Assembly (NCBI GenBank): GCA_965203805.1
Contig: OZ241917.1
Location: 3,104,001 to 3,168,000, forward strand
Source of the DNA: Candidatus Latescibacterota bacterium
GTDB lineage: Bacteria; Latescibacterota; UBA2968; GCA-2709665
DNA: 64,000 nucleotides
Direction: 5' to 3'
The translations under genes were made by a program, and so were the position numbers. The notes under the pieces were generated by a model. That model was not told the origin of the DNA. It ran no database searches and saw only the letters and a list, made by a program, of their open reading frames with translations. This document shows, in pieces, positions 1,422-37,724 of the stretch. Numbering within the stretch: position 1 is the first letter of the stretch; every line of letters starts with the position of its first letter.

Positions 1422-1608
1422 CGACAAAATCAGCAACGCGGCGTCGCGACGAAGCCTTTCGAATTGGGCCGAAAAGGTGGTCCGGAAGGACATTTTTTCC
1501 GTTCACGCCCGGTGACCTGAAGCATCATAGAAATCAGCAGTTAAATCGCCTTTATTCACTTGCACATTTTCGAATTAACGTCCCCGTAAAGTGACGAATC
1601 AAAGTTAG
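1422..1608 (+). repeat. Dispersed conserved intergenic element, copy A
   Basis: Gap-free alignment to the reverse complement of 12100-12286 (about 29 mismatches in 187 nt by hand count) and to 37611-37724. Confidence 0.85.
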
Positions 1609-1625
1609 TCAGGAGATTGAGAAAT

Positions 1626-2726
1626 ATGGTTAGCGTATTCTCCTTTTGCGGATCATGTTTTGCCTTTTTTGCAACGGTTCTTGGGTTAATCCTCGGGATA
1701 TCCGGCTTTGCCTCCGCTCAAGACGATCCGTCTGCGAAGTCAAAAACATTCACGCTGGACAAAGAGAGAAGCGCGTTCATGTTTGGAGGCAGTCAGTTCA
1801 GGGCAACAACCGATCGTATCAATGGAAGTATCGTACTCGACCCCGATGCGTTGCATAAGACGTTCAAGGCGATCTTCCAGCTTGATATGAAACGTCTGCA
1901 AATGCAGACCGGCATGGATAGGGGGGCGCAGAAGGTCTGGTGGAACGCTGATATTTACCCGCAAGCTATCCTTCGGATTGAAAGCCTGAATGTTGCGGAG
2001 GATGCCCGGCTGGTCGATGCATTACCCATCATTGCTGATGCCGACGCGACCTTTGAGTTCCACGGTGTCAGGAGGCCGGTAGAATTGAACGAGTTGCGAT
2101 TCACCTTTTTTTCAAGAAGCAGTCGGTTTGCCCAATGGTTACCCGGCGAGGTCCTGCGGCTCGTCGGCGATTTTGAAATCCAATCCGCGGACTTCAGGAT
2201 CAAAGCAGAGCCGGAATTGACCGCTCCAATACCGATCGACTTTGTTCTGTTTGCTATTGATAGCACCGCCGCTGATGCCGGCCCTACCGAGATGATTGGT
2301 GATTACTTACGCGTCCCATTCAGTTTCTTGAGTGATTACTGGCTGGATGAGCCGGATTGGAGGCAGTTGGAAGATTCGGAATACGTCAGTTCGCTCTCTT
2401 ACGACACCGAGATCCCCGATAAGGTGAAGCAACTCGATGAGAAAAAGGTCGCAATCACTGGATTTATGCTTCCTATCGACGTTGACGAGGGAAATGTGAA
2501 ACGGCTCCTGTTGCTCAAGTCAACAATGTCGTGCTGTTTCGGCGTTGCACCACGTATCAATGAGGTTATCTACGTTGAAACCTCAAAAAAGCAGAAAGTT
2601 CGAACGGTGATGGACATGCCAATCACCGTTTTCGGTAAACTCTCAGTCGGTCAGCAGTTTCGGGAGGACTTGATGCTGATGGGCGTTTATCAATTGGAGT
2701 TGGATGAGGTAAAACGTGCACGATAA
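1626..2726 (+). CDS. Exported protein, YceI-like N-terminal domain fused to DUF3299
   Basis: Signal peptide. YceI-like segment (FRATTDRINGSIVLDP...ATFEFHGVRRPV). C-terminal KKVAITGFMLPID...MSCCFGVAPRINEVIYV matches the DUF3299 pattern. AGGAG 10 nt before ATG 1626. Confidence 0.65.
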   Translation: MVSVFSFCGSCFAFFATVLGLILGISGFASAQDDPSAKSKTFTLDKERSAFMFGGSQFRATTDRINGSIVLDPDALHKTFKAIFQLDMKRLQMQTGMDRGAQKVWWNADIYPQAILRIESLNVAEDARLVDALPIIADADATFEFHGVRRPVELNELRFTFFSRSSRFAQWLPGEVLRLVGDFEIQSADFRIKAEPELTAPIPIDFVLFAIDSTAADAGPTEMIGDYLRVPFSFLSDYWLDEPDWRQLEDSEYVSSLSYDTEIPDKVKQLDEKKVAITGFMLPIDVDEGNVKRLLLLKSTMSCCFGVAPRINEVIYVETSKKQKVRTVMDMPITVFGKLSVGQQFREDLMLMGVYQLELDEVKRAR

Positions 2727-2906
2727 ACAGGACAACCCGAAATCACAATAAAGCAATCACGTACTCCCGGTGCGCACGTGACTGCTTTCGACAACGTTCC
2801 GTTCCGGGCGCCCTGTTTCCGGCCGTATCGAGAACGCTGAATTTCCATCCCTATCACCGGGGAGATTTGATCCCCTCCCGCCTAAAATCCCCTAAACCGG
2901 TCTTCC

Positions 2907-3716
2907 ATGTTCGGAATCGCCCAGATCCACTGGAGTGCCGACCCCGAGATTTTCCGCATTGGTCCGGTCGTCCTGCGCTGGTACAGCCTGTGCTTTCTTG
3001 TCACCTTCGTCCTCGGCTATTTCACAATGCGCCGAATGTTCCGGTTCGAAGGGAAACCCGCGAAGGATCTGGACAGCCTGGTAAACCATATGGTTCTCGG
3101 CACCCTCATCGGCGCACGCCTGGGACATTGTCTGTTCTACGATCCCGCGTTCTACCTGACAAACCCGATCGAGATCTTCAAGATCTGGCGAGGCGGCCTC
3201 GCCAGCCACGGCGCAGCCATCGGCATTTTTACCGCACTCTATCTGTACGCCCGAAACCGGCCGGATCAATCCTATCTCTGGATACTTGACCGTGTCGTCG
3301 TAACGGCTGCCCTTGGCGGGTTCTTCATCCGTATCGGCAACTTCTTCAACTCCGAAATATACGGCATCCCGACCGAGTTGCCCTGGGCGGTCGTCTTTTC
3401 CCACATCGATGCGGTCCCGAGGCATCCGGCGCAACTCTATGAATCGCTCGCCTACGGACTGATTTTCCTCCTCCTCTTCGCGGTCTATTCGGGACAGCGC
3501 GCCCGGACGCCGTCCGGAATGCTCCTCGGCCTCTTCCTCGTAACCGTGTTTTCATTCCGGGTGGTGGTCGAGTTCGTCAAGGTCCGTCAGGCCGCTTACG
3601 GCCACGGCTTCCCCCTCAGCGTGGGGCAGTGGCTCAGCCTCCCGCTCATCATCCTGGGCATCGTCCTTCTCGTAAACGCACGAAAGCGGTCCGGCACGAA
3701 AGCTCCCACCCCGTAG
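2907..3716 (+). CDS. lgt: Prolipoprotein diacylglyceryl transferase
   Basis: LRWYS, GARLGHCLFY, IWRGGLASHG, RIGNFFNSEIYG and RHPAQLYE motifs. Confidence 0.95.
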   Translation: MFGIAQIHWSADPEIFRIGPVVLRWYSLCFLVTFVLGYFTMRRMFRFEGKPAKDLDSLVNHMVLGTLIGARLGHCLFYDPAFYLTNPIEIFKIWRGGLASHGAAIGIFTALYLYARNRPDQSYLWILDRVVVTAALGGFFIRIGNFFNSEIYGIPTELPWAVVFSHIDAVPRHPAQLYESLAYGLIFLLLFAVYSGQRARTPSGMLLGLFLVTVFSFRVVVEFVKVRQAAYGHGFPLSVGQWLSLPLIILGIVLLVNARKRSGTKAPTP

Positions 3717-3979
3717 GGATGGCGAAACCACCGGTACTATTCCCGAATCTCTCTGTAGAACGACACACAAAACGCAGGATTTTAATTTATAAATGCGCGA
3801 TATTTGATGGATTATTATTGTGTTGCGTTATCCAGGCTCAAAAGCCGTTAAATGGTGCGGGGTTCCGAGACCCTGAACGGGCCTCGACGGCGGGCTCATT
3901 CGCTGTCCTGCGGGATCTGGTGTGTCATCGTGGAAATACCTCACCATTCTTTCGGTTTTCCAGATCTTATCCTGTCCAT

Positions 3980-4016
3980 CCTGCCTGCCTGTGCCGTGCC
4001 CGGCACGGCAGACAGG
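3980..4016. repeat. Short GC-rich palindromic repeat (CCTGCCTG...CAGACAGG type)
   Basis: TGCCGTGCC-C-GGCACGGCA perfect core flanked by CCTGCCTG/CAGACAGG. Related element at 41246-41280. Confidence 0.55.
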
Positions 4017-4071
4017 TCCATCCATGTTTGTTTCGGTTTCTTTTAATCGAGTTACAGAAAGGTGGGATCCC

Positions 4072-4827
4072 ATGAACTCGTATGCGGCCGTGGCCGGCAT
4101 GCTGCAGAAGTCCCTCAACCTTGCCCTTCCGCCGGTTGCCGTCTGTATTTCGGACGCAGTGCCTGAAGGCGTACCGGAATACGATGGCCGGGCGCCTGCC
4201 GGCTGTCTGTTCTGGCAGGAGGCGGAAAAAGGCCCCTTTTCCACCCGGACTTCCCATCACGAACTGTGCGCCATCGGCGTACATACGCACCAGATGGCCA
4301 ACCCACCGGCCTCGTACGAAGCGGAACTGGGCGACGTTCTGAAAACCATGGCCGGGATGGATTACGTTCGCGAAGAGGACGTGATGGAGATCCCGGTGCT
4401 GGAGAACAAAACCAGGCACGTCATCTACGCCCCTTTGGACAAAACGCCGCTCGAACCGGCCGTGGTCCTTCTCTTCGCCCATTCGGCACAGAGCTTGATC
4501 ATTACAGAAGCCGTCCAGCAGGTCGAACCGGCCGTTCCACCCGCTATGGGCAGGCCCGCATGCGCCGTGGTTCCCCATGCCGTCAACACCGGACGCGCCG
4601 CGCTCAGCCTGGGCTGCTGCGGCGCAAGGGCATACCTGGATGCCCTCACGGACGACGTCGCCGTGTGGGCGCTGCCTGGCGACAAGGTACATCTGTACGC
4701 AGCCCGCATCGACGTTTTCGCCAGGGCCAACAACGTCCTTGGCCAATTCCATTCCCTGCGTAGAAAAGACGTGGAGGACGGGCTTGAGCCCACGGTTGCC
4801 GAGTCACTTTCACGGTTGGAAAGCTGA
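4072..4827 (+). CDS. DUF169 family protein
   Basis: Conserved Cys pattern (GCLFW, LCAIG, GRPACAVVP, LSLGCCGAR). RBS GAAAGGTGG before ATG 4072. Confidence 0.75.
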   Translation: MNSYAAVAGMLQKSLNLALPPVAVCISDAVPEGVPEYDGRAPAGCLFWQEAEKGPFSTRTSHHELCAIGVHTHQMANPPASYEAELGDVLKTMAGMDYVREEDVMEIPVLENKTRHVIYAPLDKTPLEPAVVLLFAHSAQSLIITEAVQQVEPAVPPAMGRPACAVVPHAVNTGRAALSLGCCGARAYLDALTDDVAVWALPGDKVHLYAARIDVFARANNVLGQFHSLRRKDVEDGLEPTVAESLSRLES

Positions 4828-4864
4828 CCCGCGACACCAGATTTGCGCCGCGCAACTCTTTCGC

Positions 4865-4892
4865 TTGAAACGGCACACTTGCATGGTATATT
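4865..4892 (+). promoter_or_regulatory. Putative sigma70 promoter for the chdC-like gene
   Basis: TTGAAA-N16-TATATT with TG extended -10. Confidence 0.5.
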
Positions 4893-4944
4893 GAGAGCAA
4901 TTCCCGCATCCACGGACTCACCTTCACTTCAGACGGAATCCCCG

Positions 4945-5667
4945 ATGCGTTCCACATCGAAAGAACGGACGCTGGACCTGCGCGAAAAAGGCAAACCCAT
5001 CAACGGACAGATGCAGGCCAGCAACCGACGGCTCTATATGCAGCTGCACGTGTTCGGAAACTGCGCGTGCACGCAGACAATTGCCGACGGGCTCGGCGAA
5101 TCCGGCGTCGAAGCCGTCCTGTACGCGGACCTGAACGATCCGTCCGGTGTCGGCATTCTCACGCTGTCCGAGTCTCCGGGAGCCTTTACGGGGGAAATCC
5201 GCACATTGTTGAGCTCCCGTCCCTTCGCCGAGCTTCAACGCCATCCCGATCTTACCATGTTCGGAAGGACCTACGCGCACGGGTACGAGCCCGATCTTGA
5301 CGAGACGCTGCTGAAAAAACCGCGCCGCAAGGTCCTGAATCCGGCCTGGCCCTGGGCCGTGTGGTATCCGTTGCGACGCAAGCCCGAATTCGGACTGCTG
5401 TCGGGCGAGGAACTGCGCGGGATCCTGGGTGAACACGCCAGAATCGGACGGACCTACGCCGAGGCCGGATTTGCCCAGGACATCCGCCTGGCCTGCTATG
5501 GCCTTGACCGCAATGACAATGACTTCGTCATCGGCCTGCTGGGTCCCGATTTGCATCCGCTCTCGCACGTTGTCCAGGAAATGCGCAAGACCCGGCAGAC
5601 TGCGCAATACGTTCAGTCTCTGGGACCGTTTTTCGTGGGTAAAGCCATCTGGCAAGCTCCTCTATGA
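4945..5667 (+). CDS. Chlorite dismutase/coproheme decarboxylase (ChdC/HemQ) family protein
   Basis: C-terminal WYPLRR...EHARIG...YGLDRNDNDFVI...QEMRKT...GPFFVG signature with the proximal His. Confidence 0.8.
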   Translation: MRSTSKERTLDLREKGKPINGQMQASNRRLYMQLHVFGNCACTQTIADGLGESGVEAVLYADLNDPSGVGILTLSESPGAFTGEIRTLLSSRPFAELQRHPDLTMFGRTYAHGYEPDLDETLLKKPRRKVLNPAWPWAVWYPLRRKPEFGLLSGEELRGILGEHARIGRTYAEAGFAQDIRLACYGLDRNDNDFVIGLLGPDLHPLSHVVQEMRKTRQTAQYVQSLGPFFVGKAIWQAPL

Positions 5668-5715
5668 CACTGATGAAGAGACACAAAGAGGAATATTGAC
5701 CCTCGACAGGCCGAC

Positions 5716-6969
5716 ATGATTCGCAAGATCGAAGTCCTCCGTTTCGGCTGCCTGCGTTTCATCAGCCGGCCGCTGGATGCGTTTCACATTCTCGTTGGGC
5801 CCAATGCCAGCGGGAAAACCACCCTGTTGGATGCCATCGCATTCCTCGGCGACCTCGTTTCCGACGGGCTGGAGGAGGCCGTCGAAAAACGCACGGACGA
5901 CCTGCGCGACCTGGTCTGGCGCCGTACCTTCGATCCGTTCGAACTGGCCATCGACCTGAGCGTACCGGAGCAGAAATCCGACCTCTTCGAAAACCGGCAA
6001 TACGATCGATGCCGGTACGAAATCACCATAGGGCCGTCAGCCGAAACGGGTGAGACCGCCATTCTGGCCGAACGCGTCCTGCTTCTCCCCGACGATCCTC
6101 AGGAAGACCCCGAGTGTGAACAGCAGACGCTCTTCCCGGTGGACCGCCCAATGCCGGACACGCTGGCCCTGCCCCGCGTCAGAGGCGCCAGGACCATCGT
6201 GCATAAGGTTCACGGGAGCAATGACAACTTCTACTACGAAACCGGTACCGGATGGGACCACTCTTTCAGGCTGGGTCCGAGGCGGTCCGCTCTGGCCAAT
6301 CTGCCGGAAGACGAAACCCGATATCCCGTAGCGACCTGGCTGAAGGGCGTACTCAACAACGGAATTCAGCGCCTGGTACTGAACAGCGAGAGTATGCGTC
6401 GTCCCAGCCCGCCCGGCCGCCCGGCCGGATTTCAGCCCGACGGCTCCAACCTGCCCTGGGTTATCGCGGCCCTGCATGCCAGCGCGCCCGAACGGTTCAC
6501 GGCGTGGATAGGTTGTCTGCAGTCCGTTCTTCCCGACCTGAGGTCCATTCGCACAATCGTACGTCCCGAGGACCGGCACTGCTATCTGGTTTTCCAGGAC
6601 CGAAACGGACTCGAGGCGCCCTCCTGGGCCATTTCAGACGGCACCCTTCGCCTTCTGGCCCTCACGCTTCCGGCATACCTGCCGGATTTTGGCGGCGTCC
6701 ATCTGGTAGAAGAACCCGAAAACGGAATCCATCCCCGGGCCGTCGAAACGGTATTTCGAGCGCTCGCTTCCATAGAAAACGCCCAGATCCTCTTAACCAC
6801 ACACTCGCCCGTCATTGTGGGCCTGGCGGAAGGCAGTCAGATCATCTGTTTTTCCAGGACGGAATCCGGCGCCACCGACATGGTCCTCAGCACCGAAAAT
6901 CCAGCACTCCGCGAGTGGCAGGGCGAAACCGATCTGGGCTCCCTGTTCGCCGACGGCGTGCTGGGATAG
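5716..6969 (+). CDS. ABC-type/AAA_21 ATPase, resembling defence-associated (MAD3-like) ATPases
   Basis: Walker A GPNASGKT, signature ISDGTLRLL, Walker B LVEEPENGIHP, H-loop TTHSP. Confidence 0.8.
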   Translation: MIRKIEVLRFGCLRFISRPLDAFHILVGPNASGKTTLLDAIAFLGDLVSDGLEEAVEKRTDDLRDLVWRRTFDPFELAIDLSVPEQKSDLFENRQYDRCRYEITIGPSAETGETAILAERVLLLPDDPQEDPECEQQTLFPVDRPMPDTLALPRVRGARTIVHKVHGSNDNFYYETGTGWDHSFRLGPRRSALANLPEDETRYPVATWLKGVLNNGIQRLVLNSESMRRPSPPGRPAGFQPDGSNLPWVIAALHASAPERFTAWIGCLQSVLPDLRSIRTIVRPEDRHCYLVFQDRNGLEAPSWAISDGTLRLLALTLPAYLPDFGGVHLVEEPENGIHPRAVETVFRALASIENAQILLTTHSPVIVGLAEGSQIICFSRTESGATDMVLSTENPALREWQGETDLGSLFADGVLG

Positions 6970-7107
6970 AACGATGAGCGCCTCGGGAACGAGAGCGGGA
7001 GGAACCGCCGGCGACCCGACCGCCCGGGCGGTTCGTCCTTATCGCCGCAGCGATTGCAGTCCGACGACGTCACTGTGGAATAACAAAGGCATTCGAGGAC
7101 ACACCCT

Positions 7108-8277
7108 GTGGATGAACTGACGTTGAAATACGGTTGCAACCCGCACCAGACACCCGCGAGAATATTCAACGAGCGCGGCCCGCTGCCCTTCCGGGTCCTG
7201 AACGGCGCGCCAGGCTATATAAACCTTCTCGACGCGCTCAATTCCTGGCAGCTTGTAAAGGAACTTGGAGAGACTCTCGGCACACCCGCCGCGGCTTCCT
7301 TCAAACACCTCAGCCCCGCCGGCGCCGCCGTGGCGGTGCCGCTCAGCGACGATGTGAAGAAAGCCCTGTTTGTGGAGGACCTGGACCTCTCGCCACCGGC
7401 CGTCGCGTACGCCCGCGCCCGAGGCGCCGACCGGCTATCTTCGTACGGCGATTGGGCAGCACTGAGCGACACGGTAGACGTCGCCACCGCCAGGCTTCTT
7501 CGCCGGGAGGTTTCCGACGGCGTGATTGCGCCCGGATATCATCCGGAAGCCCTGGATATATTGAAGCGGAAAAAAGGCGGCGCCTATCCGGTCCTTCAGA
7601 TCGATCCGGATTACAAACCCCGGGAGACTGAGCGTCGGGAGGTATTCGGACTCACGTTCGAGCAGCGGTCCAACACCCGTTCTACCGGCCCTGAGATTTT
7701 GAAGAACGTCGTTACCCGTAAACGGGAGATTCCTCCGGAAAAGGCCCGCGATATGCTGGTGGCCACGATAACGCTCAAGTTCACCCAGTCCAATTCCATC
7801 TGCTTCGCACTGCAAGGCCAGGCCATCGGCGTGGGCGCAGGCCAGCAAAACCGCCTTGCGTGTACGGATATCGCCGCCAGGAAAGCCGAAACATGGTTTC
7901 TGCGCCAACACCCCGCGGTGCTCGATCTGAAATTCAGACGGGGCGCCAGGCGACCCGAGAAGATAAACGCCATCGAACGCTATCTCAAGGGAGACATGCC
8001 TCCCGAAGAAGAGAGCGTCTGGCGGACTTCATTCCGCAATGCGCCGCCGCCCCTCGAGGATTCGTCCAGGCGGGAGTGGCTGCAGCGTCTCAAGGGTGTC
8101 ACCCTGGGTTCCGACGCGTATATTCCCTTCCGGGACAACATCGATCGCGCCGCTCAAGCGGGGGTGGAGTACGTTATCCAGACGGGCGGTTCCGTACAGG
8201 ACGATGCCGTAACCGCCGCCGCGGATGAATATGGCATGGTCATGGTCAACACCGGCATCAGGCTCTTTCATCACTGA
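7108..8277 (+). CDS. purH: AICAR formyltransferase (PurH-type lacking the N-terminal IMP cyclohydrolase/MGS domain)
   Basis: Starts directly at LKYGCNPHQ. Also has GYINLLDA, SFKHLSPAG, TQSNSI, GAGQQNR, SDAYIPFRDN and RLFHH. Confidence 0.85.
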   Translation: MDELTLKYGCNPHQTPARIFNERGPLPFRVLNGAPGYINLLDALNSWQLVKELGETLGTPAAASFKHLSPAGAAVAVPLSDDVKKALFVEDLDLSPPAVAYARARGADRLSSYGDWAALSDTVDVATARLLRREVSDGVIAPGYHPEALDILKRKKGGAYPVLQIDPDYKPRETERREVFGLTFEQRSNTRSTGPEILKNVVTRKREIPPEKARDMLVATITLKFTQSNSICFALQGQAIGVGAGQQNRLACTDIAARKAETWFLRQHPAVLDLKFRRGARRPEKINAIERYLKGDMPPEEESVWRTSFRNAPPPLEDSSRREWLQRLKGVTLGSDAYIPFRDNIDRAAQAGVEYVIQTGGSVQDDAVTAAADEYGMVMVNTGIRLFHH

Positions 8278-8322
8278 CCTCGATTCGTCAACTTTCGGTA
8301 ACGTTAATTCGAATATACCCAA
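8274..8322 (-). repeat. Dispersed conserved intergenic element, partial copy D (3' part)
   Basis: Reverse complement reads CTTGGGTATATTCGAATTAACGTTACCGAAAGTTGACGAATCGAGGTCAG, colinear with the 3' part of copies A and B. Confidence 0.65.
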
Positions 8323-8456
8323 GGAAAGATCGAGAGTTGAATGCTGTTTCCTGCCTGGAAAACCGACTCCTTTTCCCCGCAGCGGCCGTGAGACCGGCAC
8401 GGTGAAATCGAGATGGCCGCATTTCTCCAGATAACGAAAAAATACCAAATTTTCCG

Positions 8457-8485
8457 TTGACGACCGCGCAAACGGGCCTTATATT
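8457..8485 (+). promoter_or_regulatory. Putative sigma70 promoter for the sigma factor gene
   Basis: TTGACG-N17-TATATT. Confidence 0.6.
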
Positions 8486-8575
8486 TATCGTCCGACACGG
8501 CGTCAGGACGCCACAAATCCAGGATAAACCGGTGTACCTGAGGGCATATACCGTAGCAAATGGAGATTTTCGGAC

Positions 8576-9412: not shown

Positions 9413-9426
9413 AACGACACCCGCAC

Positions 9427-9462
9427 AAAAAAAAGGGCGGCCTGAGTGGCCGCCCTTTTTTT
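9427..9462. terminator. Bidirectional intrinsic terminator
   Basis: A8-GGGCGGCC-TGAGT-GGCCGCCC-T7 between convergent genes. Confidence 0.9.
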
Positions 9463-9498
9463 GCATGTACTAACCGCTTACTGCCCCGAAAAACCCGA

Positions 9499-10677: not shown

Positions 10678-10709
10678 TGTCCGTATCGACTTTCTCTCCC
10701 GGAGATTCA

Positions 10710-11312: not shown

Positions 11313-11378
11313 GTTCTTCCTCCAATGGTTCTATTCGATGACCAGTGTCCGTGCGGTACGGCAGACGGTTCCAGGCTG

Positions 11379-12092: not shown

Positions 12093-12099
12093 CGAAAAG

Positions 12100-12286
12100 C
12101 TGACTTTGATCCGTCATTTTTCCGGGACGTTAATTCGAATATATGCAAGTTGATAAAGGCGATTTTACTACTGATTTCGATGAACCTTCAGGTCACTGGA
12201 CGTGAAGGGAAAAAACGTCCTTCCGGACGACCTTTTCGGCCCGTTTCGGAAGGTTTCGTCGCAGCGACCCGTTGCCGTTTTTGTCG
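12100..12286 (-). repeat. Dispersed conserved intergenic element, copy B
   Basis: Reverse complement aligns without gaps to 1422-1608 (~84% identity by hand). Confidence 0.85.
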
Positions 12287-12544
12287 AACTGTGGCTGACG
12301 AATCGGTAACGATTTCCGGAAAAACGACAACCCGTGTCTTTAAGTCACAACCGGAAATCAAAGGAACGGGATTTCGGGGTACGAAAACAGGTGAATCTCC
12401 ACGCTTTCGATGCGGTTTCTCCGCTTGACATCCGGCATCGTTGTGGGTTAATTATAGCCGTTCCAACACGGAATTGCAAGACCCGCATCTACCGACGTCG
12501 CATCTGCCATTTCAATCGTTCAAGACCGAATGAAAGGGTTTTCA

Positions 12545-18657: not shown

Positions 18658-18664
18658 TAGCACA

Positions 18665-28693: not shown

Positions 28694-28761
28694 CCTTTCC
28701 TCCTGCTGTTTGCAATCTCTCTCCGCTGCCTGTCGCCCGCACCGGGCGCGCCTGCGCCGGA

Positions 28762-30573
28762 CTACTTCCCTTTGCCGCCGGCGCCGCCACCCTCGGCAAA
28801 AATAACGCCGTTTCGTTTTCTGTTCACGTCCAGGACAACGATCTGACTTCCCGACAGCACGTAGTCCGTGGGAATCCGCGTCCTTTGTACAACGGTCTGT
28901 CGAACCGGTTTTACGGCATCCGAGGAGCGGGAAAACTGAAGCACCGAAAGTACCGAGAACGGCAGCCTTGACAATTCGCGTCCCTCAATCGTCACACCCT
29001 GGGCGCCGGACAACAACTCAACGACCAATTCATCGTTCCGGCTGACCTGCCCCAGCAGGCGGATGAGATGATCCAGGTTTCCGGCGTTATGTTCACCCGG
29101 CGCCCGCTTGGCCTCCTGTTTGCCGTGGGCCGATGCGCTGGAAACCCGAAGAATCAGCCGGCCTCCCGGCGTCTGACCGGGAATGACCAGCGCCTCCCGA
29201 ATCTGCTCCAGGCCGCCCCAATAGGGCCTCAGGGAAACCGTGACGCACACCGTATCGCCGGGCTGGTACGACGTCTTCTGCAAACCGACCGAATTGATGT
29301 GGGCGGTATGCGCCCGCTCGGCTTCAACATCCAGGTCGAAGGTGACCCTCTCGATCCGAACGGGCTCAAATGGATTCCGGATCAGTTGCGTCAGCGGCGT
29401 GGTGACGCCCGTCACGGCCTGCCCGAGGCCCAGCGGGCCGGCATAGACGTTTTCGGCCTCTACAGACGGACGTCCGTTCAGTTCAATTCTTACGCGGGAT
29501 GTTACCGTCACCTCTCCGGTCAGCTTCTCGGACGAAACCATCGCGCTGAATACGCCAATCCTCAAGAGCGCGGGGGTGAGGTCGCGGTTTCGCAGGACCT
29601 CCATGCGGAACCGCGCCTCCTTTCCAGGGGAACGCAGATTGATCTGCGCAGGCATCATGTCCACGTCGAGACCGACGGTTCCCGCGATGCCCGGAGCGCG
29701 GTCCTGAACGATGGCGCCCATGGTTTCACCGGCCACGCCCAGCTTGAATGACGCGTATTGACTGGGCAGCACTTCGTGGATATAGGCGGCCGTCATCGGC
29801 AACGCCGTGGCGCCGCCGAAAATCATGGAATGCCCGAAACCGACCACCCGGTCGCCGTCGCGATGGGTCAGCGTTCCGATTCCGGTAACGCTGAGATCGC
29901 CACGTACGAGCTGTACGCCAAGGGCGGCGCCGGGTTCGAACGCGCCCGAAGGCACGCCTGGGTCCGCGCTACCGCCACCTTGAACCGGCGTCCATCCCAA
30001 CTCAGAGAATTCCCTTCGGAATTCAGCCACCGCCCGTTGCGCGAAACCGGAGATAGCGATCGGCAGGCTTATCGGCGTCAGTTCGGCCGCATCCATCCCC
30101 GTCAGATCGAGCAGCCGGCGCGCGCCGGCTTCCGGCAATCGGGCCGCCGTACGGACGCCGTCCGGCGCGGTCGGCCGGTTGAACAGTTCAACCATGGCCG
30201 CAATCGGCGTGATCCCTGCGATGGGTTCCTTGGCAAAAGCGCCGACCCGGTAGGATACCGCGCCGATCAGCTTGCCATCGATGTAGACCGGGCTGCCGCT
30301 CATCCCCAGGATCACCCCCGTATTGGACAGGGGGCCGCCGGACAACCGGGCGAGAATCAGGTCGCTGCGAGGACCGATCGCGTTGTGCAGGACACCCAGG
30401 ATTTCGACCTGAAACGTATCGATCCGCGTGCCCTGGAAGACCGTCCGTCCGATACCCCGCATCCCTCTGCGGAGTTCCTTTACGGGAAGGGTCGCCACAG
30501 TCCCCCAGGAATTGGCGAAGATTGCGCACCACAGTACGGCCGGAAGCGTTATTTTCAGAAGGCGCGCCACCAC
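28762..30573 (-). CDS. SpoIVB peptidase S55 domain protein
   Basis: GRTVFQG...FQVEILGV, GVILGMSGSPVYIDGKLIGAVSY, GFGH. Confidence 0.85.
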   Translation of the reverse strand: MVARLLKITLPAVLWCAIFANSWGTVATLPVKELRRGMRGIGRTVFQGTRIDTFQVEILGVLHNAIGPRSDLILARLSGGPLSNTGVILGMSGSPVYIDGKLIGAVSYRVGAFAKEPIAGITPIAAMVELFNRPTAPDGVRTAARLPEAGARRLLDLTGMDAAELTPISLPIAISGFAQRAVAEFRREFSELGWTPVQGGGSADPGVPSGAFEPGAALGVQLVRGDLSVTGIGTLTHRDGDRVVGFGHSMIFGGATALPMTAAYIHEVLPSQYASFKLGVAGETMGAIVQDRAPGIAGTVGLDVDMMPAQINLRSPGKEARFRMEVLRNRDLTPALLRIGVFSAMVSSEKLTGEVTVTSRVRIELNGRPSVEAENVYAGPLGLGQAVTGVTTPLTQLIRNPFEPVRIERVTFDLDVEAERAHTAHINSVGLQKTSYQPGDTVCVTVSLRPYWGGLEQIREALVIPGQTPGGRLILRVSSASAHGKQEAKRAPGEHNAGNLDHLIRLLGQVSRNDELVVELLSGAQGVTIEGRELSRLPFSVLSVLQFSRSSDAVKPVRQTVVQRTRIPTDYVLSGSQIVVLDVNRKRNGVIFAEGGGAGGKGK

Positions 30574-30610
30574 TGAGACCCTTTCTGATTAGACGGTACG
30601 GAAGCCAGGA

Positions 30611-30639
30611 AATCTACGTTGCGCCTGCAGAAAAGTCAA
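30611..30639 (-). promoter_or_regulatory. Putative sigma70 promoter of the S55-rib-secA operon
   Basis: TTGACT-N17-TAGATT, ~40 nt upstream of the start codon. Confidence 0.6.
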
Positions 30640-30910
30640 GCGTTGGGACTTCTCGCTTACCGTGATCCAACGTCCTTTCCCGGAAACAAGCTGCCTGAAT
30701 CCGGCGCCGCAATCCCGGCAAACGCAAGGGTTGTCCCTGCGATTACAGGATAGGCGCATATCACGGTCCTTCGCGGTTTATTTCTCGCCCATCCGGCAGG
30801 CTTGCAAGTCAATATCGGAGACCGGGTTCAGTCTCGCGGATATTATACCCGTTTTTGGAGTGTGGAACAAGCCTCTTGTGAAAATCCGATCTTGTCCTTA
30901 TCATAATCCC

Positions 30911-31381
30911 ATGCGAATCATGCTGGTGGCGGTTGGCAAATGTCGAAAGCGGTACTTGAGGGAAGGAGTGACGGACTACATCGATCGAATCAACAGATAT
31001 GCCAGCCTGAAGCATATCGAACTGAAAGAGGAACGGACCCCGAAGAAGGGCGCGGCGCAAGGCAGTCTTGGCGTCGAGGCCGAACGCATTCTCCGCAGCG
31101 TACCGGAAAGAGCCTATCTTGTTGCTGTGGATCCTGCCGGAGACGTTTGCACTTCCGACGCCTTCGCACGCCGAATAAGAAAAATCGGTATTGACGGCAC
31201 AAGCCGGATCGCGTTTGTCATTGGCGGCCCTGCCGGCCTCTCTTCCCGGGTTACCCGGCGCGCCGACTGGCGACTATCGCTTTCTTCACTGACCTTTCCG
31301 CACGAAATCGCCCGTCTGGTGCTTCTCGAACAGATCTACAGGGCATTTACCATTATACGCGGCGAACCGTATCACCGGTAG
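30911..31381 (+). CDS. rlmH: 23S rRNA (pseudouridine1915-N3)-methyltransferase
   Basis: MRIMLVAVGK, FVIGGPAG, SLSSLTFPHE, LEQIYRA...GEPYHR. Confidence 0.93.
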   Translation: MRIMLVAVGKCRKRYLREGVTDYIDRINRYASLKHIELKEERTPKKGAAQGSLGVEAERILRSVPERAYLVAVDPAGDVCTSDAFARRIRKIGIDGTSRIAFVIGGPAGLSSRVTRRADWRLSLSSLTFPHEIARLVLLEQIYRAFTIIRGEPYHR

Positions 31382-31444
31382 GTTCCGCCGTCGGCAGTTC
31401 CTCAGTAACGAGGGAGGATTTCAGACCGCGATTTCGGCAGTCAG

Positions 31445-31685
31445 AAAAAAGCCCGGAAAACAGGTCCATCCGACAGCCGTGGAGAGATGATTCCGCCACT
31501 GGAATCCGGCTGCCGGGAACGTCCCCTGTTTCCGGGCTTTTTAATTCAGACCGAATTGCGAGGATTTGCAGTTTCGGGGGAACGGAAGTAATACGGATCC
31601 GACAACCACGGTGAACGGCCGGAGGGGTATCGGCCAAATGGCGCCGGAAGATAGGTTGTCTCAATCTCGTGCTTCCTGAGAGCAA
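31445..31685 (-). ncRNA. Candidate small RNA (two-domain structure, C-rich loops, ends in a long hairpin plus U6)
   Basis: Upstream promoter at 31690-31718. No credible ORF. Stems GACAACC/GGTTGTC, GGCCG/CGGCC and GCCCGGAAACAGG/CCTGTTTTCCGGGC followed by TTTTTT. Confidence 0.45.
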
Positions 31686-31689
31686 TTGA

Positions 31690-31718
31690 AAGATAAGCCA
31701 TAGTTTTTCCCCAGTCAA
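31690..31718 (-). promoter_or_regulatory. sigma70 promoter pointing into a gene-free interval
   Basis: TTGACT-N17-TATCTT. Confidence 0.55.
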
Positions 31719-31958
31719 GGGTAAGTTTGTCGTAATATACTGTTTTACATTATCTTGTGGTCTCCATGCGGAGGCATACCTTATATGGAATTTCAGGTGG
31801 CGAAGCCCGGCGGACCGGGTGAAGAGGGGGAACGTCCCCGCCGCCGGCGATATCCCTGGACAGGTTTTGCGTCCGGCGCTATCTTCGATGTCCGGTAAGA
31901 CGAGCGGGGTCTGTATAGACCGAACTCACACGCATTCGTGTTTCGACGTGATTCCCCC

Positions 31959-33311
31959 ATGCCACATACCCTTACCATAACCCGCGCCGCCGCGGAGATC
32001 CGGGCGGGCCGTCTTTCTCCCCTGGAGTTGCTGCAGGCCTGCATTACGCAGATCGACACGCTCGACAACCGCCTGCGCGCATGGGTCAACGTGGACCGGA
32101 GAGGGGCCGAGCATTGCGCGCGGCGCCTTCAGGAAGAACTCGCCCTCGGCCGGTACCGCGGTCCCCTGCACGGAATCCCGGTGGGAATAAAGGACATCAT
32201 CAACGCGAAAGGCCTGCCGACCACCGCTGGAGCAAAGGAACTCTACAACCTGGCACCGAAAGAAGATGCAACGGTGGTTGAACGCCTGCGCACATCCGGC
32301 GCTGTCATCCTCGGCAAAACGGTGACCACGCCCTTTGCATGTTTCGATCCGGCCGAAACCAGGAACCCGTGGAACCCCGACCATACGCCAGGCGGCTCCA
32401 GCAGCGGCTCCGCAGCAGCCGTCGCGGCGCGTATGTGCCCCGCCGCCCTGGGCTCACAGACCGGCGGCTCCATCAGTCGTCCCGCCGCGTACTGCGGGCT
32501 CGTGGGTCTGAAACCCACCTTCGGCCGGATCAGCCTGCGGGGAATCCTGCCCGTCAGCTACGAACTCGACCATCCGGGTCCGATCACACGCTCGGTCGCC
32601 GATGCGGCCCTCATCCTTGCGGCCGTTGCCGGCAAAGATCCAATGGACCCGCTCAGCGCCGACGTCCCCGCCGGAGAATACAGCATCAAGCCGTTGACGC
32701 GCCCGCCGCGCGTTGGCATCGTCCATACCTATTTCCCTGAACACGCCGACGAAGCCGTGCGTGCGGCGACCGACGACGCCACGCGCAGACTCGACGCCGC
32801 GGGCGCCGAATTCACCGATGTGCAAATGCCCGAATCGTTTGCGGAACTGCACGAGAATCACGCCTTGCTGCTCGCGGTTGGCGCGGCGCGGGTTCACAGG
32901 GAAAGGTATGACGCGCACCGCGACCGGTTTCCGCCGGGCCTGTGCGAAATCATCGAAAGGGGTCGCGCCGCCGGGGCCGTGGACTACGCCGAGGCGCGAC
33001 GCCACCAGATCGCATTCAAGTCTGAGGTCCTCGCCGCTTTCGAAGGCGTGGACCTGCTCCTCACCCCCGCAACCCCCACACCGGCGCCATCGGGCCTCGA
33101 GTCCACCGGCAACCCCGGCTTCAACAGCCCCTGGAGCTACGCCGGCCTGCCCACGACGGTCCTGCCCGTCACATGCACCCCCCGTGGCCTGCCCGTCGGC
33201 ATTCAGCTGGTTGCCGGCCCCTTCGCCGAGTCCCGACTGCTGGCTATCTCCGCCTGGTGCGAGAACCACCTCGAGTGGAACCGCATCCCATCGATTCCAG
33301 CGGACAATTAA
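31959..33311 (+). CDS. Amidase signature family protein (GatA-like)
   Basis: GIPVGIKD, TPGGSSSGSAAAVA, LGSQTGGSISRPAAYCG, GLPVGIQL. Confidence 0.9.
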   Translation: MPHTLTITRAAAEIRAGRLSPLELLQACITQIDTLDNRLRAWVNVDRRGAEHCARRLQEELALGRYRGPLHGIPVGIKDIINAKGLPTTAGAKELYNLAPKEDATVVERLRTSGAVILGKTVTTPFACFDPAETRNPWNPDHTPGGSSSGSAAAVAARMCPAALGSQTGGSISRPAAYCGLVGLKPTFGRISLRGILPVSYELDHPGPITRSVADAALILAAVAGKDPMDPLSADVPAGEYSIKPLTRPPRVGIVHTYFPEHADEAVRAATDDATRRLDAAGAEFTDVQMPESFAELHENHALLLAVGAARVHRERYDAHRDRFPPGLCEIIERGRAAGAVDYAEARRHQIAFKSEVLAAFEGVDLLLTPATPTPAPSGLESTGNPGFNSPWSYAGLPTTVLPVTCTPRGLPVGIQLVAGPFAESRLLAISAWCENHLEWNRIPSIPADN

Positions 33312-33316
33312 ATCGC

Positions 33317-34528
33317 ATGTATCGGATCCTCAAGCGTTGCACGTGGCTGCCGCTCGTTTTGCTTCCTTACGGCGTCATTTCAACTTCCCGCGCGGATGTC
33401 CCCAGGCACCACGCCGTCCGCCAGGGTATTGACTATATGCTCGACGAGCGGTATGCCCTTTCCCACGCCATTTTCGATTCACTCATCTCCGTCGAGCCCG
33501 AACGCCCGGAGGGGTATCTGGGCAAGGCCCTTTCGTACTGGAACGAAAGCATGCTTGTAGCGGACGGCGAACGGTTTGTCGACTCCGTCGACCGCCTGAC
33601 CGGGCGCGCGATCAAACTCGCCGAAACTGCGCTCAAGCGCGACAATGACAACGCGGAGATGGTCTTTCTGCTCGGTAAAGCCTATGGACTTCGCGCGGGC
33701 CTGGCGCTCATCCACGGCAGCCCCATCGACGGCGTCCTTCACGGCTTGAAATGCCGCGATTACCTCGCGGAAACCATCCGTCTGGATCCAGACATGGCAG
33801 ACGCCTATTTCGGACTGGGCCTCGCAGAGTACGTCGCCGCCCGCCAGCCGCGTTTCCTCAGGATGGTGAGCCGGCTCCTGTCGCTTCCCGACGGCAATCG
33901 AAAACGCGGGCTCGAGCGCCTGGAACGGGTTGCCCGGGAGGGGATCTATACGCAACGGCACGCCGTTTCGAGCCGTGCCTACATCGCGCTGTACTACGAA
34001 AAAGACTACGACGACGCCGTTCTCCGGTTCGCGGACCTGCACGGCCGCTACCCCCACAGCCTGGACTACCGTATTCGTTTCCTGGACGCCCTCTTCGGGC
34101 TCACCATCCGGGGCGGACGGGATCACCGCCAGGCCCTGATCGACTCCGCACGATCGATCCGTCGCCTGGCTGAATCGCGCGGTTTGGACCTGAACCGCTG
34201 GTCGCGCACCAAGCTGGACTTTATCGAAGGCTTTGGTCACTTTCTCACCGGCAACGCGGCCGAAGCTCGCGAACGACTGGAAATCTACATCGCGGAAGCT
34301 ACCGGAAAGAGCTGGCTGCTGGGACCCTCGCATCTCATTCTGGGCAAACTGGCCGACACGCGAAACGACCGGGAAACCGCGATCCGCCATTACCGCCGGG
34401 CGCGAAAATACGAAAACGTATGGGGCGTCCACGACGAAGCCGCGGCCTACCTCCGTCAACCCTTCGCCGGCGAGGAGCCCGTCCGGCGCCCTCCGGATAC
34501 GGTCCGGCGATATCCGGAGAAACCCTGA
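33317..34528 (+). CDS. Exported tetratricopeptide-repeat protein
   Basis: Signal peptide and TPR-like repeats (PEGYLGKA, AEMVFLLGKAY, LDPDMADAYFGLG, HLILGKLAD...AIRHYRRA). Confidence 0.7.
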   Translation: MYRILKRCTWLPLVLLPYGVISTSRADVPRHHAVRQGIDYMLDERYALSHAIFDSLISVEPERPEGYLGKALSYWNESMLVADGERFVDSVDRLTGRAIKLAETALKRDNDNAEMVFLLGKAYGLRAGLALIHGSPIDGVLHGLKCRDYLAETIRLDPDMADAYFGLGLAEYVAARQPRFLRMVSRLLSLPDGNRKRGLERLERVAREGIYTQRHAVSSRAYIALYYEKDYDDAVLRFADLHGRYPHSLDYRIRFLDALFGLTIRGGRDHRQALIDSARSIRRLAESRGLDLNRWSRTKLDFIEGFGHFLTGNAAEARERLEIYIAEATGKSWLLGPSHLILGKLADTRNDRETAIRHYRRARKYENVWGVHDEAAAYLRQPFAGEEPVRRPPDTVRRYPEKP

Positions 34529-34705
34529 ATCGCGGTTGAACCTTGACGCTTATGCGGGAATACGCTTTATTTTCCAGAACGGAACCTGGTGTGCCGTCTC
34601 GAGCAGGACGTTCCGCGGAAGCGCGGCCGGCGGCGGGAAGTACAGCAAACCCCGGCCGCATTCCGAACACGAATGTGCCGGGGTTTATCGCCTCAAGGAA
34701 TCGGT

Positions 34706-35512
34706 ATGGCGTTCGCGTCCTCGAACTTCCCGCGCAACGCGAGGCTCGTTCATTTCCGGGAGCGCATCCGTTACCCGGATCCTCCGGCGCCTCCGTGGAT
34801 CCTCCCCACCGTGGTCCGTCTCAAATTTCCGGACGCGGATATCAAGCGCCGCTACACGAAAAATATCTGCGCATCCGTCGCCCTCTCATCAATACTCCTT
34901 GCGCTTCCCTGCCTTCTCTTTCCACGATTCGAGTTTCGCAGTTATCCATCCTACACCACGCCGGTTATCATCACGCTGGAAGACATTCCCGAAACCTATC
35001 AGGCCGAGAGCCCCGAAACCGAACCGGTAATCCTGGGCGCAGACGAACCGGACGGCGCGGCCGTGGTTGACACCGTGGAAGACGAGGAGTCGGAACTCGA
35101 CTTTCTCGCCAATCTTCAAATCGATGACACGCTTGGCGATATGGGCAGGACGCTGAATGAGAAAGCCGTCGATTTCTGGGCCGTTTCAAAAGAACCCGTA
35201 CTCGTGCGCGAGATCCTGCCCATCTATCCCAGGGACGCCCACGACTTGGGCCTCGAAGGGGTTGTTTTCGTCAAATTCGCCGTCGGAACGGACGGAAGGG
35301 TCAAGGAAGCCTCCATCCTTAAGGGACCCCGGATCTTCCACGCATCCGCTCTTGACGCCGTCTACAAGTTTGTCTTCAGGCCGGCCCTTCAGAACGACAA
35401 GCCCGTCGCGGTCTGGATGACCCGTCCAATCCGATTTCGCATTGTGGACAATCTGCTTGAAGCGCGACCCGCACAACAGATTGAAAAGCTGCCCGCGGCC
35501 CAATCGCGATAG
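34706..35512 (+). CDS. Energy transducer TonB family protein
   Basis: Single TM, acidic linker, then TonB C-terminal PIYPRDA...EGVVFVKFAVGTDGRV...FRPALQNDKPVAVW. Confidence 0.85.
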   Translation: MAFASSNFPRNARLVHFRERIRYPDPPAPPWILPTVVRLKFPDADIKRRYTKNICASVALSSILLALPCLLFPRFEFRSYPSYTTPVIITLEDIPETYQAESPETEPVILGADEPDGAAVVDTVEDEESELDFLANLQIDDTLGDMGRTLNEKAVDFWAVSKEPVLVREILPIYPRDAHDLGLEGVVFVKFAVGTDGRVKEASILKGPRIFHASALDAVYKFVFRPALQNDKPVAVWMTRPIRFRIVDNLLEARPAQQIEKLPAAQSR

Positions 35513-35523
35513 AGGCGCCCCTG

Positions 35524-36528
35524 TCATTCCCCCCGGTCGCGACCGACCGCCCCTCCGGAATAAATCACTTCCATCAATCGATCCCGTTCATCCAGCCGAA
35601 CGCGCAGTGTGAACGCCCGCCTGCTCAGAAATTGCGGGTTATGGTCCAGCGCCATGCCCAGGACCAGCGAACCCAGCCACCCAAGGGCGTCTGCCCGGAT
35701 ACCGAACCGCAAATCGTGGATCAGAAACACTCGATCGCTTTCGTCCGACTCAATCACCGCAGGGAAGCGGGCGAACCAGCGATAGATCCGTCCGTCCCGC
35801 CGTTCCCACACGTCTTCCAGACGGGGTTCTTCAAGCGCCGACCGGTACGACCTGGGCGCCCCGGCAACCCCCGAAAACAGTGATACCGGAACCTCGTACC
35901 AATTTCCTTCGCCGGACGCGATTCCACGCCGGTGCAAAGGAGAGAAGGGCACTGGAACCGCCGCCACCGCCGTCAAACCCTTTCCGGTTGCCCACCGGTC
36001 CAGATAATGGAGCGTCATGCCCGAAACGGCGACATTTAGCGCCATATAGACGGTCAACGCCGCCGCACCCAGGCGGTAACCGCCCGCTCCGCGGCCCTTC
36101 CATCCGAGAACCAGTCCGCCGATCAGAATCAGATCCAGATACGGGTCGATAATGAACAGCACGTCGAACAACGCCCGGTACCTGGAAAACGGCATGAAGA
36201 TCATCGTACCGTACGAGGTTACCAGATCGAAGAAAATGTGCAGCAGCAGGCCGGAAAGGGTGACGAGATACAGCTTTGCAAACGGGACCTCCTTCAGCAC
36301 GAATCGCCGGACGACCCACGCCACGGCGACCGCGCCAATTGCGGCGCCGAACAGCGAATGTGTCATCCCGCGGTGCGTCTGCAGGCTGTCGAGGGCGTCG
36401 CCGGCAAGGAATACATCCGCGTCGGGCAACACACTGGCCACGGTAATCAGGTTCACCAGTCCCCGTTCGCGCGGCCAGATTGATCGCGCGACCAGGCGGC
36501 CAACCAGGCCATGTGTGGGGGTATCCAT
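35524..36528 (-). CDS. Membrane-bound metal-dependent hydrolase (YdjM/YfhP-like)
   Basis: MDTPTH, LPDAD, HRGMTHSL, HIFFDLVTSYGT, IIDP. Confidence 0.8.
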   Translation of the reverse strand: MDTPTHGLVGRLVARSIWPRERGLVNLITVASVLPDADVFLAGDALDSLQTHRGMTHSLFGAAIGAVAVAWVVRRFVLKEVPFAKLYLVTLSGLLLHIFFDLVTSYGTMIFMPFSRYRALFDVLFIIDPYLDLILIGGLVLGWKGRGAGGYRLGAAALTVYMALNVAVSGMTLHYLDRWATGKGLTAVAAVPVPFSPLHRRGIASGEGNWYEVPVSLFSGVAGAPRSYRSALEEPRLEDVWERRDGRIYRWFARFPAVIESDESDRVFLIHDLRFGIRADALGWLGSLVLGMALDHNPQFLSRRAFTLRVRLDERDRLMEVIYSGGAVGRDRGE

Positions 36529-36757
36529 TCCGTTTACCTCGCTAAGACAATTGAATCAGGCGGAAATCAGCGGCGGCGGCCGCCCGTATCAGACCCCTTT
36601 CGTACGGGGATGCCGCCAGCGGTCGTCCGACGCCGATTCACCGCTTTCTTCAAGAAGCTGTCGTGAAATTCCCCGCAGCCTTCGCGCGGCTGCAAGAGCG
36701 CCGGCCACACGGAATATACCCAATGCCCCGGCTGAATCAACCCCGCGCAAACGCCGC

Positions 36758-36787
36758 TTGACAGCGTGCGTCGCGCCGACATACCAT
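36758..36787 (+). promoter_or_regulatory. Putative sigma70 promoter for the SDR gene
   Basis: TTGACA-N18-TACCAT. Confidence 0.5.
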
Positions 36788-36854
36788 ATCAGTCCGTTCA
36801 CAACGCCAACTTCCCCTTCCTCACACGCGAAGGGCTTCCGGGAGGCTGAATGCA

Positions 36855-37586
36855 ATGTCAAGACTGAAAGGAAAGGCCGCGCTGGTAACCGGCGGGAATC
36901 AGGGCATCGGAAAAGGAATCGCGCGAGGGCTGGCCAAAGAGGGCGCGGACATCGTGCTGACCGCCAGAACGGTCGGCAAGCTTGAATCGGCGGCGGCAGA
37001 GATCCGGGCGGAAGGCGTGGAGGCGCTGGTCGCGCCCGCCGACGTCACCGACGAATCCCAGGTGGAGGCCGTGTTCGCGCAAACGATGGAACGGTTCGGC
37101 AGGCTGGATGTTCTGGTGAACAACGCGGCCGCCTTTGACGGGGGAAGAATCGACGAGATTTCCGCGTCGTCGTGGGACTGGGCGATGGCGGTGAATCTGC
37201 GCGGGCCCTTCCTGTGCACCCGGGCGGCGTTTCGCATCATGAAAGAACAGGGCGGCGGTCGGATTATCAATATAGGCAGTATTTCCGCGCAGCGGGTTCG
37301 CCCGAATTCGGCGCCGTACAGCACGAGCAAGTTCGGCATCACCGGCCTGACGCATGCCACGGCGCTGGACGGCCGGGACTACGGGATCGTATGCTCCTGC
37401 CTGCACCCCGGCAACACGCTGGTGGAACGACGCGAGGAATCCGACGCGCCCACGGACGACGAACCGATGATGACGGTGGATGAACTGGCGCAGGCCGCGG
37501 TAACCATGGCGACGCTGCCGCTTCATGTCAACATGCTGGAGGCGATCGTCTTGCCCGTCGGACAGCTGTACGTTGGAAGAGGTTGA
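36855..37586 (+). CDS. Short-chain dehydrogenase/reductase
   Basis: TGGNQGIG, NNAA, IGSIS, YSTSK. RBS GGAGG. Confidence 0.92.
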   Translation: MSRLKGKAALVTGGNQGIGKGIARGLAKEGADIVLTARTVGKLESAAAEIRAEGVEALVAPADVTDESQVEAVFAQTMERFGRLDVLVNNAAAFDGGRIDEISASSWDWAMAVNLRGPFLCTRAAFRIMKEQGGGRIINIGSISAQRVRPNSAPYSTSKFGITGLTHATALDGRDYGIVCSCLHPGNTLVERREESDAPTDDEPMMTVDELAQAAVTMATLPLHVNMLEAIVLPVGQLYVGRG

Positions 37587-37610
37587 ATGGGTACGGGCGT
37601 GTTTCCAGGA

Positions 37611-37724
37611 CGACGAGAATCGCAATACGGCGCCGAGACGAAACCCTTCGAAACGGGCGGGAAAGGGCGTCCGGAAGGATATTTCTTCCGTTCACGTCCA
37701 GTGACCTGATGGTTCCTGGAAATC
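37611..37724 (+). repeat. Dispersed conserved intergenic element, partial copy C (5' ~114 nt)
   Basis: Gap-free alignment to 1422-1535 and to the reverse complement of 12173-12286. Shared blocks include GTCCGGAAGGA, TTCACG and GTGACCTGA. Confidence 0.8.

Follow-up and report, generated by a model that had tools for sequence, protein, structure and literature searches.

Dispersed 191-bp intergenic repeats in a Candidatus Latescibacterota genome are very probably a family of IS1380-type miniature inverted-repeat transposable elements

Introduction

The DNA under study is a window of 64,000 nucleotides (the whole stretch that was analysed) from a Candidatus Latescibacterota bacterium, corresponding to positions 3,104,001 to 3,168,000 of contig OZ241917.1 in assembly GCA_965203805.1. 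The source genome, referred to below as G000, is a single contig of 5,865,457 bp with 59% G+C. An earlier note on the window had drawn attention to a conserved intergenic element in four copies, some of them close to sigma-factor genes, and had offered four readings of it: a regulatory module, a structured non-coding RNA, a MITE (miniature inverted-repeat transposable element) or a family of micro-ORFs (ORF, open reading frame). We report here that the element is real, abundant and genus-wide, and that it is with high probability a MITE family of the IS1380 type, that is, ordinary mobile DNA and no dedicated regulatory module. Of the four readings the evidence favours the MITE, and no support was found for the structured RNA or the micro-ORF.

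Insertion sequences (IS) of the IS1380 family are about 1.5-2 kb long, have ends beginning with CC and generate direct repeats of 4-5 bp. The element described below has the ends and the target duplication of such an IS, which is resident in the same genome, and carries no transposase gene of its own.

Results

Four copies of the element and their gene context

The window contains two complete copies of the element (A and B) and two fragments (C and D), and their gene contexts, examined with Pfam, were as the earlier note had given them. Copy A is a complete 191-bp short-form MITE on the forward strand (1414..1604), which starts with CC, ends with GG and scores 228 bits with the nhmmer profile described below. 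Its ends were placed using a stack of 54 full-length copies, and no part of it is present at the orthologous site in a sister genome, G001. The 4-mer TTAG stands directly outside both ends, at 1410..1413 and 1605..1608 (+ strand); both are supported by the sequence, the copy stack and the G001 empty site, and the 5' one supplies the TAG stop (1411-1413) of ORF 880-1413. Copy A lies 8 bp upstream of a gene with YceI and DUF3299 domains. Copy B is a second complete 191-bp element, on the reverse strand (12104..12294, 218 bits), in the divergent region between an ECF (extracytoplasmic function) sigma gene of Pfam family PF07638, accompanied by a zf-HC2 anti-sigma gene, and the acetyl-CoA synthetase gene acs. 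It is flanked on that strand by TCAG at 12295..12298 (5') and 12100..12103 (3'), as seen in the sequence and the copy stack, and the presence of one unusual 4-mer on both sides speaks for a true duplication.

Both partial copies were recovered by the profile search. Copy C (37611..37733, + strand, 106 bits) is a decayed fragment covering model positions 19-143, with a degenerate 5' inverted repeat and without the 3' third, and it lies between a short-chain dehydrogenase gene and the gene for anthranilate synthase I. Copy D (8278..8346, - strand, 34 bits, E 5e-8), located between purH and a sigma-70 gene, corresponds to model positions 132-201; only this 3' portion is left, and its 3' inverted repeat is intact. 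The 4-mer beside its 3' end (8274..8277; TCAG on the - strand, CTGA on the + strand) contains the TGA stop of purH (ORF 7108-8277). The nhmmer spans are 1407-1610 (+) for copy A, 12096-12300 (-) for copy B and 8273-8346 (-; model 132-206) for copy D. It is most likely that the apparent link to sigma-factor genes is incidental.

Two side observations belong to these sites. Directly after copy C, at 37700-37790, there is a short stretch resembling the reverse complement of the family 3' inverted repeat, which may be a second, inverted MITE fragment. The ORF that ends on the TAG of the copy A duplication (880-1413) encodes 177 aa and has no Pfam match; at the G001 empty site the same frame, by eye, is five codons longer and runs to a TGA overlapping the ribosome-binding region of the YceI-DUF3299 gene. 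The insertion of copy A therefore appears to have shortened this ORF and to have parted two closely coupled genes by about 200 bp.

The alignment on which the earlier note was based was reproduced by BLASTN: 1422-1608 and the reverse complement of 12100-12286 are 84.5% identical over 187 nt, with 29 mismatches and 0 gaps (E 8e-54). Two finer features of the earlier note need correction. The TGAC-N8-GTCA palindrome of copy A turned out to combine the 3' inverted repeat with the target duplication and with flank unique to that site, and is no feature of the family. In the inverted pair reported for copy B, GATCCGTCA is the 3' inverted repeat of that copy, and its partner TGACGAATC lies in the flank, outside the element.

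A large family with sharp ends

In order to define the family, an nhmmer model was built from 48 full-length BLAST hits and used to search G000 at a threshold of E <= 1e-3. This gave 94 matches, of which 54 were full length (profile start <= 10, profile end >= 200, score > 100), so that the four stretches of the window are genuine members of a family far larger than four. All 54 stacked copies lose similarity at the same two positions, i.e. the element has sharp ends, and the element proper is 191 bp long. Exactly this length was observed in 36 of the 54; the other 18 depart from it, mostly by 1-3 nt, and the description of the element as gap-free, which is accurate for copies A and B, does not extend to the family. 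The element starts with CCTYAAT and ends with ATCAAGG, and both ends are conserved across the stack. They form imperfect terminal inverted repeats: comparison of the 5' end with the reverse-complemented 3' end gives 9 matches in the first 10 bases and 11 in the first 14.

A long form, some 256-265 bp in size, has the same two ends as the short form and the same 3' 143 bp, but its 5' interior differs (for example G000 589390-589644 and 1031870-1032125). When its 244-bp part was compared with G000 by BLAST, nine hits aligned over 241-249 bp and four more over 179-195 bp. The short form contains no transposase gene, and any given frame stays open from end to end in at most 6 of 35 copies. These 35 distinct gap-free copies (199 columns; pairwise identity 70-98.5%, median 80%) served as the alignment set for the analyses of variation, folding and coding reported below.

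The short phased A-tracts mentioned in the earlier note can be seen by eye in the consensus as three CGAAA-type repeats, spaced 10-11 nt apart at element positions ~36-62 (about 1449-1475 in copy A, window coordinates). A role as sub-terminal binding sites or as a bending module is conceivable. We also observed two MITE copies with identical sequence and flanks about 14 kb apart (G000 3408955-3409158 and 3423249-3423452), which lie within a larger segmental duplication.

Target duplication, empty sites and distribution

Outside both ends of the 54 full-length copies we found mostly TTAA or TTAG. The two flanking 4-mers are identical in 26 of the 54 copies, against 11.3 expected, and none of 10,000 shuffles reached 26. 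Among the copies with TTA on both sides (also 26), the fourth letter agrees in 21, against 12.2 expected, and rare 4-mers are duplicated too, such as the TCAG/TCAG of copy B. Because of this excess of side-to-side identity, the agreement of the fourth letter and the duplication of rare variants, the outside 4-mers are to be counted as target duplication and not as part of the element. Duplications longer than 4 bp had no support in the same copies.

Comparison of orthologous sites gave a consistent picture. Site A reads ...GGACA-TTCG-TCAGG... in G001 and ...GGACA-TTAG-[191 bp]-TTAG-TCAGG... in G000, which makes the former an exact empty site with a single 4-mer. In G012 the same site is occupied by the long form (~263 bp), with TTAG on both sides as in G000, which implies that one site was hit more than once or else that the 5' part of the element was replaced. 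At site B there is no element in G008 and G013, and truncated remnants are present in G001 and G012.

The element was detected in all 15 genomes of the genus (G000 and 14 others), with 8 to 180 first-look candidates per genome, and in none of 7 genomes of other genera in the family and none of 19 of the neighbouring family. A further 40 copies from 11 other genomes were inspected; they were taken from top-scoring matches and are hence biased towards complete copies. With that bias, 25 of them were exactly 191 bp and 11 were 190 bp long, and the flanking 4-mers were identical in 14 of the 25 copies of exact length.

A resident IS1380-family insertion sequence with the same ends

That no transposase gene is adjacent to the copies, as the earlier note had stated, is true and yet beside the point, because the transposase would act in trans. 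G000 has 18 matches to DDE_Tnp_1, most of which belong to two insertion sequences with ends unrelated to those of the MITE: one of 1310 bp (G000 1308656-1309965 and four more, near-identical) and one of ~1682-1712 bp (G000 357008-358689 and relatives, about eight copies with 88-100% identity). A further group has three copies, 85-92% identical to one another, and its ends begin with CCTYAAT like those of the MITE. The best copy is 1553 bp long (G000 1894732-1896284), has CC...GG ends and stands between duplicated TTAG/TTAG; in the remaining two copies the duplications read TTAA/TTAA and TTCA/TTCA. Its protein of 459 aa matches the NCBIfam model NF033539 ('IS1380 family transposase') with 212 bits, above the cut-off of 180, over profile positions 1-417 of 419, and it also matches Pfam PF13701 (110 bits) and PF01609. 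The second copy scored 195 bits with NF033539 and the truncated third 144 bits. By family model, length, CC ends and 4-bp duplications, the partner is thus an IS of the IS1380 family. Its end downstream of the transposase gene agrees with the MITE 5' end in 9 of 10 and 12 of 14 bases, ungapped, and the majority MITE 5' end in other species is even closer to it. The earlier note had named a match to a known IS or MITE end as something that would refute its proposal, and such a match is what we observe, within the same genome.

Two other candidates with the same ends were examined and rejected as autonomous elements. The one of 1101 bp (G000 3478731-3479831) is a truncated MITE beside unrelated DNA, and the one of 1052 bp (G000 1647525-1648576) is a long-form MITE with a nested ORF-less group II intron. 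Such introns, of about 800 bp, occur in two MITE copies (G000 1647525-1648576 and 1339469-1340430) at one and the same place, immediately internal to the 3' inverted repeat; their Rfam scores are 88-102 bits with RF02003 and 46-47 bits with RF00029. G000 has at least four further intron copies (689599, 134676, 5585699, 5624622), three of them in a second subfamily.

In the genus, 7 of the 15 genomes have uninterrupted full-length matches to the transposase, and 9 have a match at E <= 1e-20 when length is disregarded. We observed in addition that the transposase is 99% identical between G000 (1894752-1896128) and G003:C57:49358-50734; housekeeping flanks of G000 and of G001, G002, G008, G012 and G013 have 83-95% DNA identity. 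Against these lower values, the 99% identity of the transposase sequences suggests that the IS has recently spread horizontally among members of the genus.

Few indels and exchange between copies

To the earlier note the lack of indels between copies had suggested a constraint on spacing. Variants common to subfamilies, amplification in recent times and exchange between copies are a better explanation of this lack. Each copy differs from the consensus by a mean of 3.8 private and 20.6 shared differences, and 102 of the 199 columns are parsimony-informative. As shared differences greatly exceed private ones, the divergence must lie mostly between subfamilies, and decay after insertion accounts for only about 2%. 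Moreover, at an orthologous insertion present in two sister genomes (L039 in G006 and L052 in G009) the flanks are near-identical and the 3' two-thirds of the element differ at one position, and about 22 differences are crowded into a patch of ~65 nt towards the 5' end, which looks like conversion by a copy of another subfamily. This mosaic, like the short and long forms at site A, suggests gene conversion between copies, as judged from the sequences. Shared variants and inter-copy exchange would account for the gap-free look, with no need for a spacing constraint; a length requirement for transposition is possible.

Position of the copies relative to genes

In order to relate the copies to genes we used crude gene calls of our own (3841 ORFs by codon-usage score, covering 80% of the genome). 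None of the 94 matches lies inside a called gene. Orientation relative to the neighbouring genes was unbiased among 56 full-length copies (20 co-directional in sense, 20 co-directional in antisense, 8 divergent and 8 convergent), and there was no bias with respect to replication direction (43 versus 32, similar to the genes themselves). Neighbouring copies showed no orientation bias either, except that all four pairs less than 2 kb apart point the same way. The duplicated 4-mer falls on the stop codon of a gene reading towards the element in 12 of 54 copies, against 6.1% (344/5601) of free TTAR sites (binomial p ~9e-5); in the window this applies to copies A and D. Since the target is TTAR and gene disruption is selected against, such an excess is to be expected, and the duplication restores the stop.

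Weighing of alternative explanations

The excess on stop codons raises the possibility that the element, although a MITE by origin, is a co-opted regulatory cassette, many copies of which have been kept for their action on neighbouring genes, as a two-way terminator after stops or as a protein-binding or DNA-bending module. Several observations are in its favour. Terminator-like hairpins with T-runs are present on both strands, the antisense hairpin can pair in 90% of cells in the 35 copies, and a T-run of at least 5 in the 8 nt after the sense hairpin is found in 33 of the 35. The interior is highly conserved throughout the genus, and terminator-like parts are known in MITEs such as SPRITE, as described in PMC10969869. 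However, the core of the sense hairpin is no more than four pairs, and 62% of cells pair when six pairs are tested; the value of 0.90 for the antisense hairpin has to be read against 0.80 for a slid control, with no pair showing changes on both sides. Scans for terminator-like sites returned 1 and 2, against 0.7 and 1.0 in shuffled sequence, and there is no sigma-70-like promoter inside copy A or B. The lack of orientation bias towards genes and the copies missing from orthologous sites of sister species, with no visible replacement, argue in the same direction, and the stop-codon excess also follows from the TTAR target together with selection against gene disruption. On this balance we consider a cassette of this kind unlikely. 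A secondary host role, for example as terminator, is possible as a minor and non-exclusive addition, though unsupported.

Genes for a family of structured non-coding RNAs, whether small RNAs or elements acting in cis, would also be multi-copy and intergenic, several short hairpins can be drawn by eye, and contigs of an RNA library (run X1) cover the element. Yet Rfam returned 0 matches in the 64-kb window at gathering thresholds, RNAalifold energies for the alignment set were only -4.4 kcal/mol on the + strand and -8.7 kcal/mol on the - strand, and the minimum free energy of copy A is not below that of shuffled sequence (z +1.26 and +0.45). The public runs, from marine and coral-associated samples, were used as assembled contigs only, which break at the ends of the element. 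Contig depth rises from 34 in the flank to ~2000 in the element in X2, a run of unrecorded library type, and from 35 to ~2170 in X1, a metatranscriptome. This excess of about 55-60-fold is the same in both library types and must therefore reflect copy number, not expression. No joint across the element, as an empty-site allele would give, was reported in contigs of these runs. We regard the RNA reading as very improbable.

The antisense micro-ORF proposed in the earlier note rests on a GTG-started frame whose start codon is kept in 34 of the 35 copies and which is open over at least 31 codons in 32 of them. With almost no indels, however, any frame is trivially preserved. The variability at codon positions 1, 2 and 3 (0.107, 0.146 and 0.152) leaves position 2 unprotected, which is a non-coding pattern, and the frame runs into unrelated flank without a common stop codon or C-terminus, so that we hold this reading to be still less credible. 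Finally, immobile, neutral remnants of segmental duplications, as the copies at G000 3408955 and 3423249 with their identical flanks might suggest, are refuted by 94 copies that have sharp common ends but flanks unrelated to one another, by the target duplications and by the exact empty site, and this explanation can practically be set aside.

Discussion

We have described a short element that lacks a transposase gene, is bounded by terminal inverted repeats, is flanked by a duplication of fixed length (4 bp), has empty sites in sister species and shares its ends with an autonomous element in the same genome, all of which are the marks of a MITE. Most likely, the inverted repeats of the MITE are bound and cut in trans by the DDE transposase of the resident 1553-bp IS1380-family IS. 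The target is a site of 4 bp, in most cases TTAA or TTAG and now and then TCAG or TTCA, which is duplicated on both sides, and only insertions between genes survive. With TAA or TAG contained in the target, many copies lie exactly on a stop codon, and the duplication keeps that stop intact. The family is old, confined to one genus and divided into subfamilies, one of which is the long form, and copies appear to have exchanged segments.

Some of our observations weigh against this IS1380-type MITE interpretation. We infer the movement of the MITE by the IS1380 transposase in trans, and the likeness between the two is limited to the first ~14-20 nt; BLAST of the interior against the IS gave matches only in the terminal 16-17 nt. 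Since there is no likeness past the ends, the MITE is not a simple internal deletion derivative of the IS. The present-day copy numbers of MITE and transposase do not go together: G008 has 7-8 transposase copies and few MITE matches, and four genomes rich in MITEs (G004, G009, G010 and G014) gave no transposase match with this query. MITEs stranded without a transposase are usual. Furthermore, conservation of the interior equals or exceeds that of the inverted repeats (mean column identity of 0.92 at positions 85-112, versus 0.82 in the 5' and 0.90 in the 3' inverted repeat), which a model of pure parasitism does not predict.

The partner IS resembles known members of its family (ISEcp1, IS1247, ISPme1) in its transposase model, its length of ~1.55 kb, its CC ends and its 4-bp duplication. 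The MITE has such ends and such a duplication, and differs from these IS in having no transposase gene and an interior unrelated to the IS. For IS1247, Table 2 of PMC3281130 lists inverted repeats of 16/13 bp and a direct repeat of 5 bp. ISEcp1 and ISPme1 are described in PMC9330008 as having outward promoters and as capturing adjacent DNA by one-ended events; by comparison, no promoter-like site was found in MITE copies A and B.

In its small size, inverted and direct repeats, lack of a transposase gene, intergenic position and possession of the ends of a resident IS, the element is similar to IS-derived bacterial MITEs such as MITEPye1, Correia, ERIC, RUP and BOX. MITEPye1 of Paracoccus yeei, which PMC11578231 defines by such criteria, is derived from IS1182 and present in 1-3 copies per chromosome; our element differs in its parent family, IS1380, and in its 94 copies. 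It also differs from many MITEs in that it has no long stem-loop fold, and it also stands out for a modal length of 191 bp that is strictly kept throughout a genus. Two other origins were considered and rejected. The IS5 group makes a 4-bp YTAR duplication, and the duplication of our element has the same length and a similar consensus; however, the only same-ended IS in G000 encodes a protein of the IS1380 family, for which NCBIfam gave no IS5 model. REP and BIME repeats (repetitive extragenic palindromes and bacterial interspersed mosaic elements) are built of palindromic units of 20-40 bp and linked to RAYT transposases (REP-associated tyrosine transposases), and were set apart by the unit alone: here it measures 191 bp, is bounded by inverted repeats and a target duplication, and forms no overall palindrome.

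The piggyBac superfamily and its MITEs offer a further comparison. Ends of piggyBac elements begin with CCC, and precise excision is a hallmark of the superfamily. Our element is like them in having a TTAA-like duplication of 4 bp beside CC ends; it differs in its bacterial host and in a looser target, in which TTAA and TTAG are about equally frequent and TCAG and TTCA occur as well. This likeness agrees with the relationship in PMC10813416, where IS1380 transposases serve as the prokaryotic outgroup of piggyBac.

We found no description of an IS1380-derived MITE in the open-access full-text literature, and such MITEs are little documented. Identification of the family explains at once some 90 intergenic stretches in G000 and dozens to more than 100 in each sister species, and its copies should be masked before promoters, small RNAs or conserved regulatory motifs are inferred in these genomes. 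It is conceivable, though we doubt it, that the family is more than a parasite: a piggyBac-like, genus-wide MITE of fixed 191 bp, with a conserved interior homogenised by exchange, many copies of which have been recruited as terminator or insulator cassettes at stop codons. If this were true, the family would be a tractable bacterial model for the TTAA-type target choice of the IS1380/piggyBac lineage. As the TTAA/TTAG target and the CC ends mirror those of piggyBac, the family is in any case usable for studying how target sites are chosen in this lineage.

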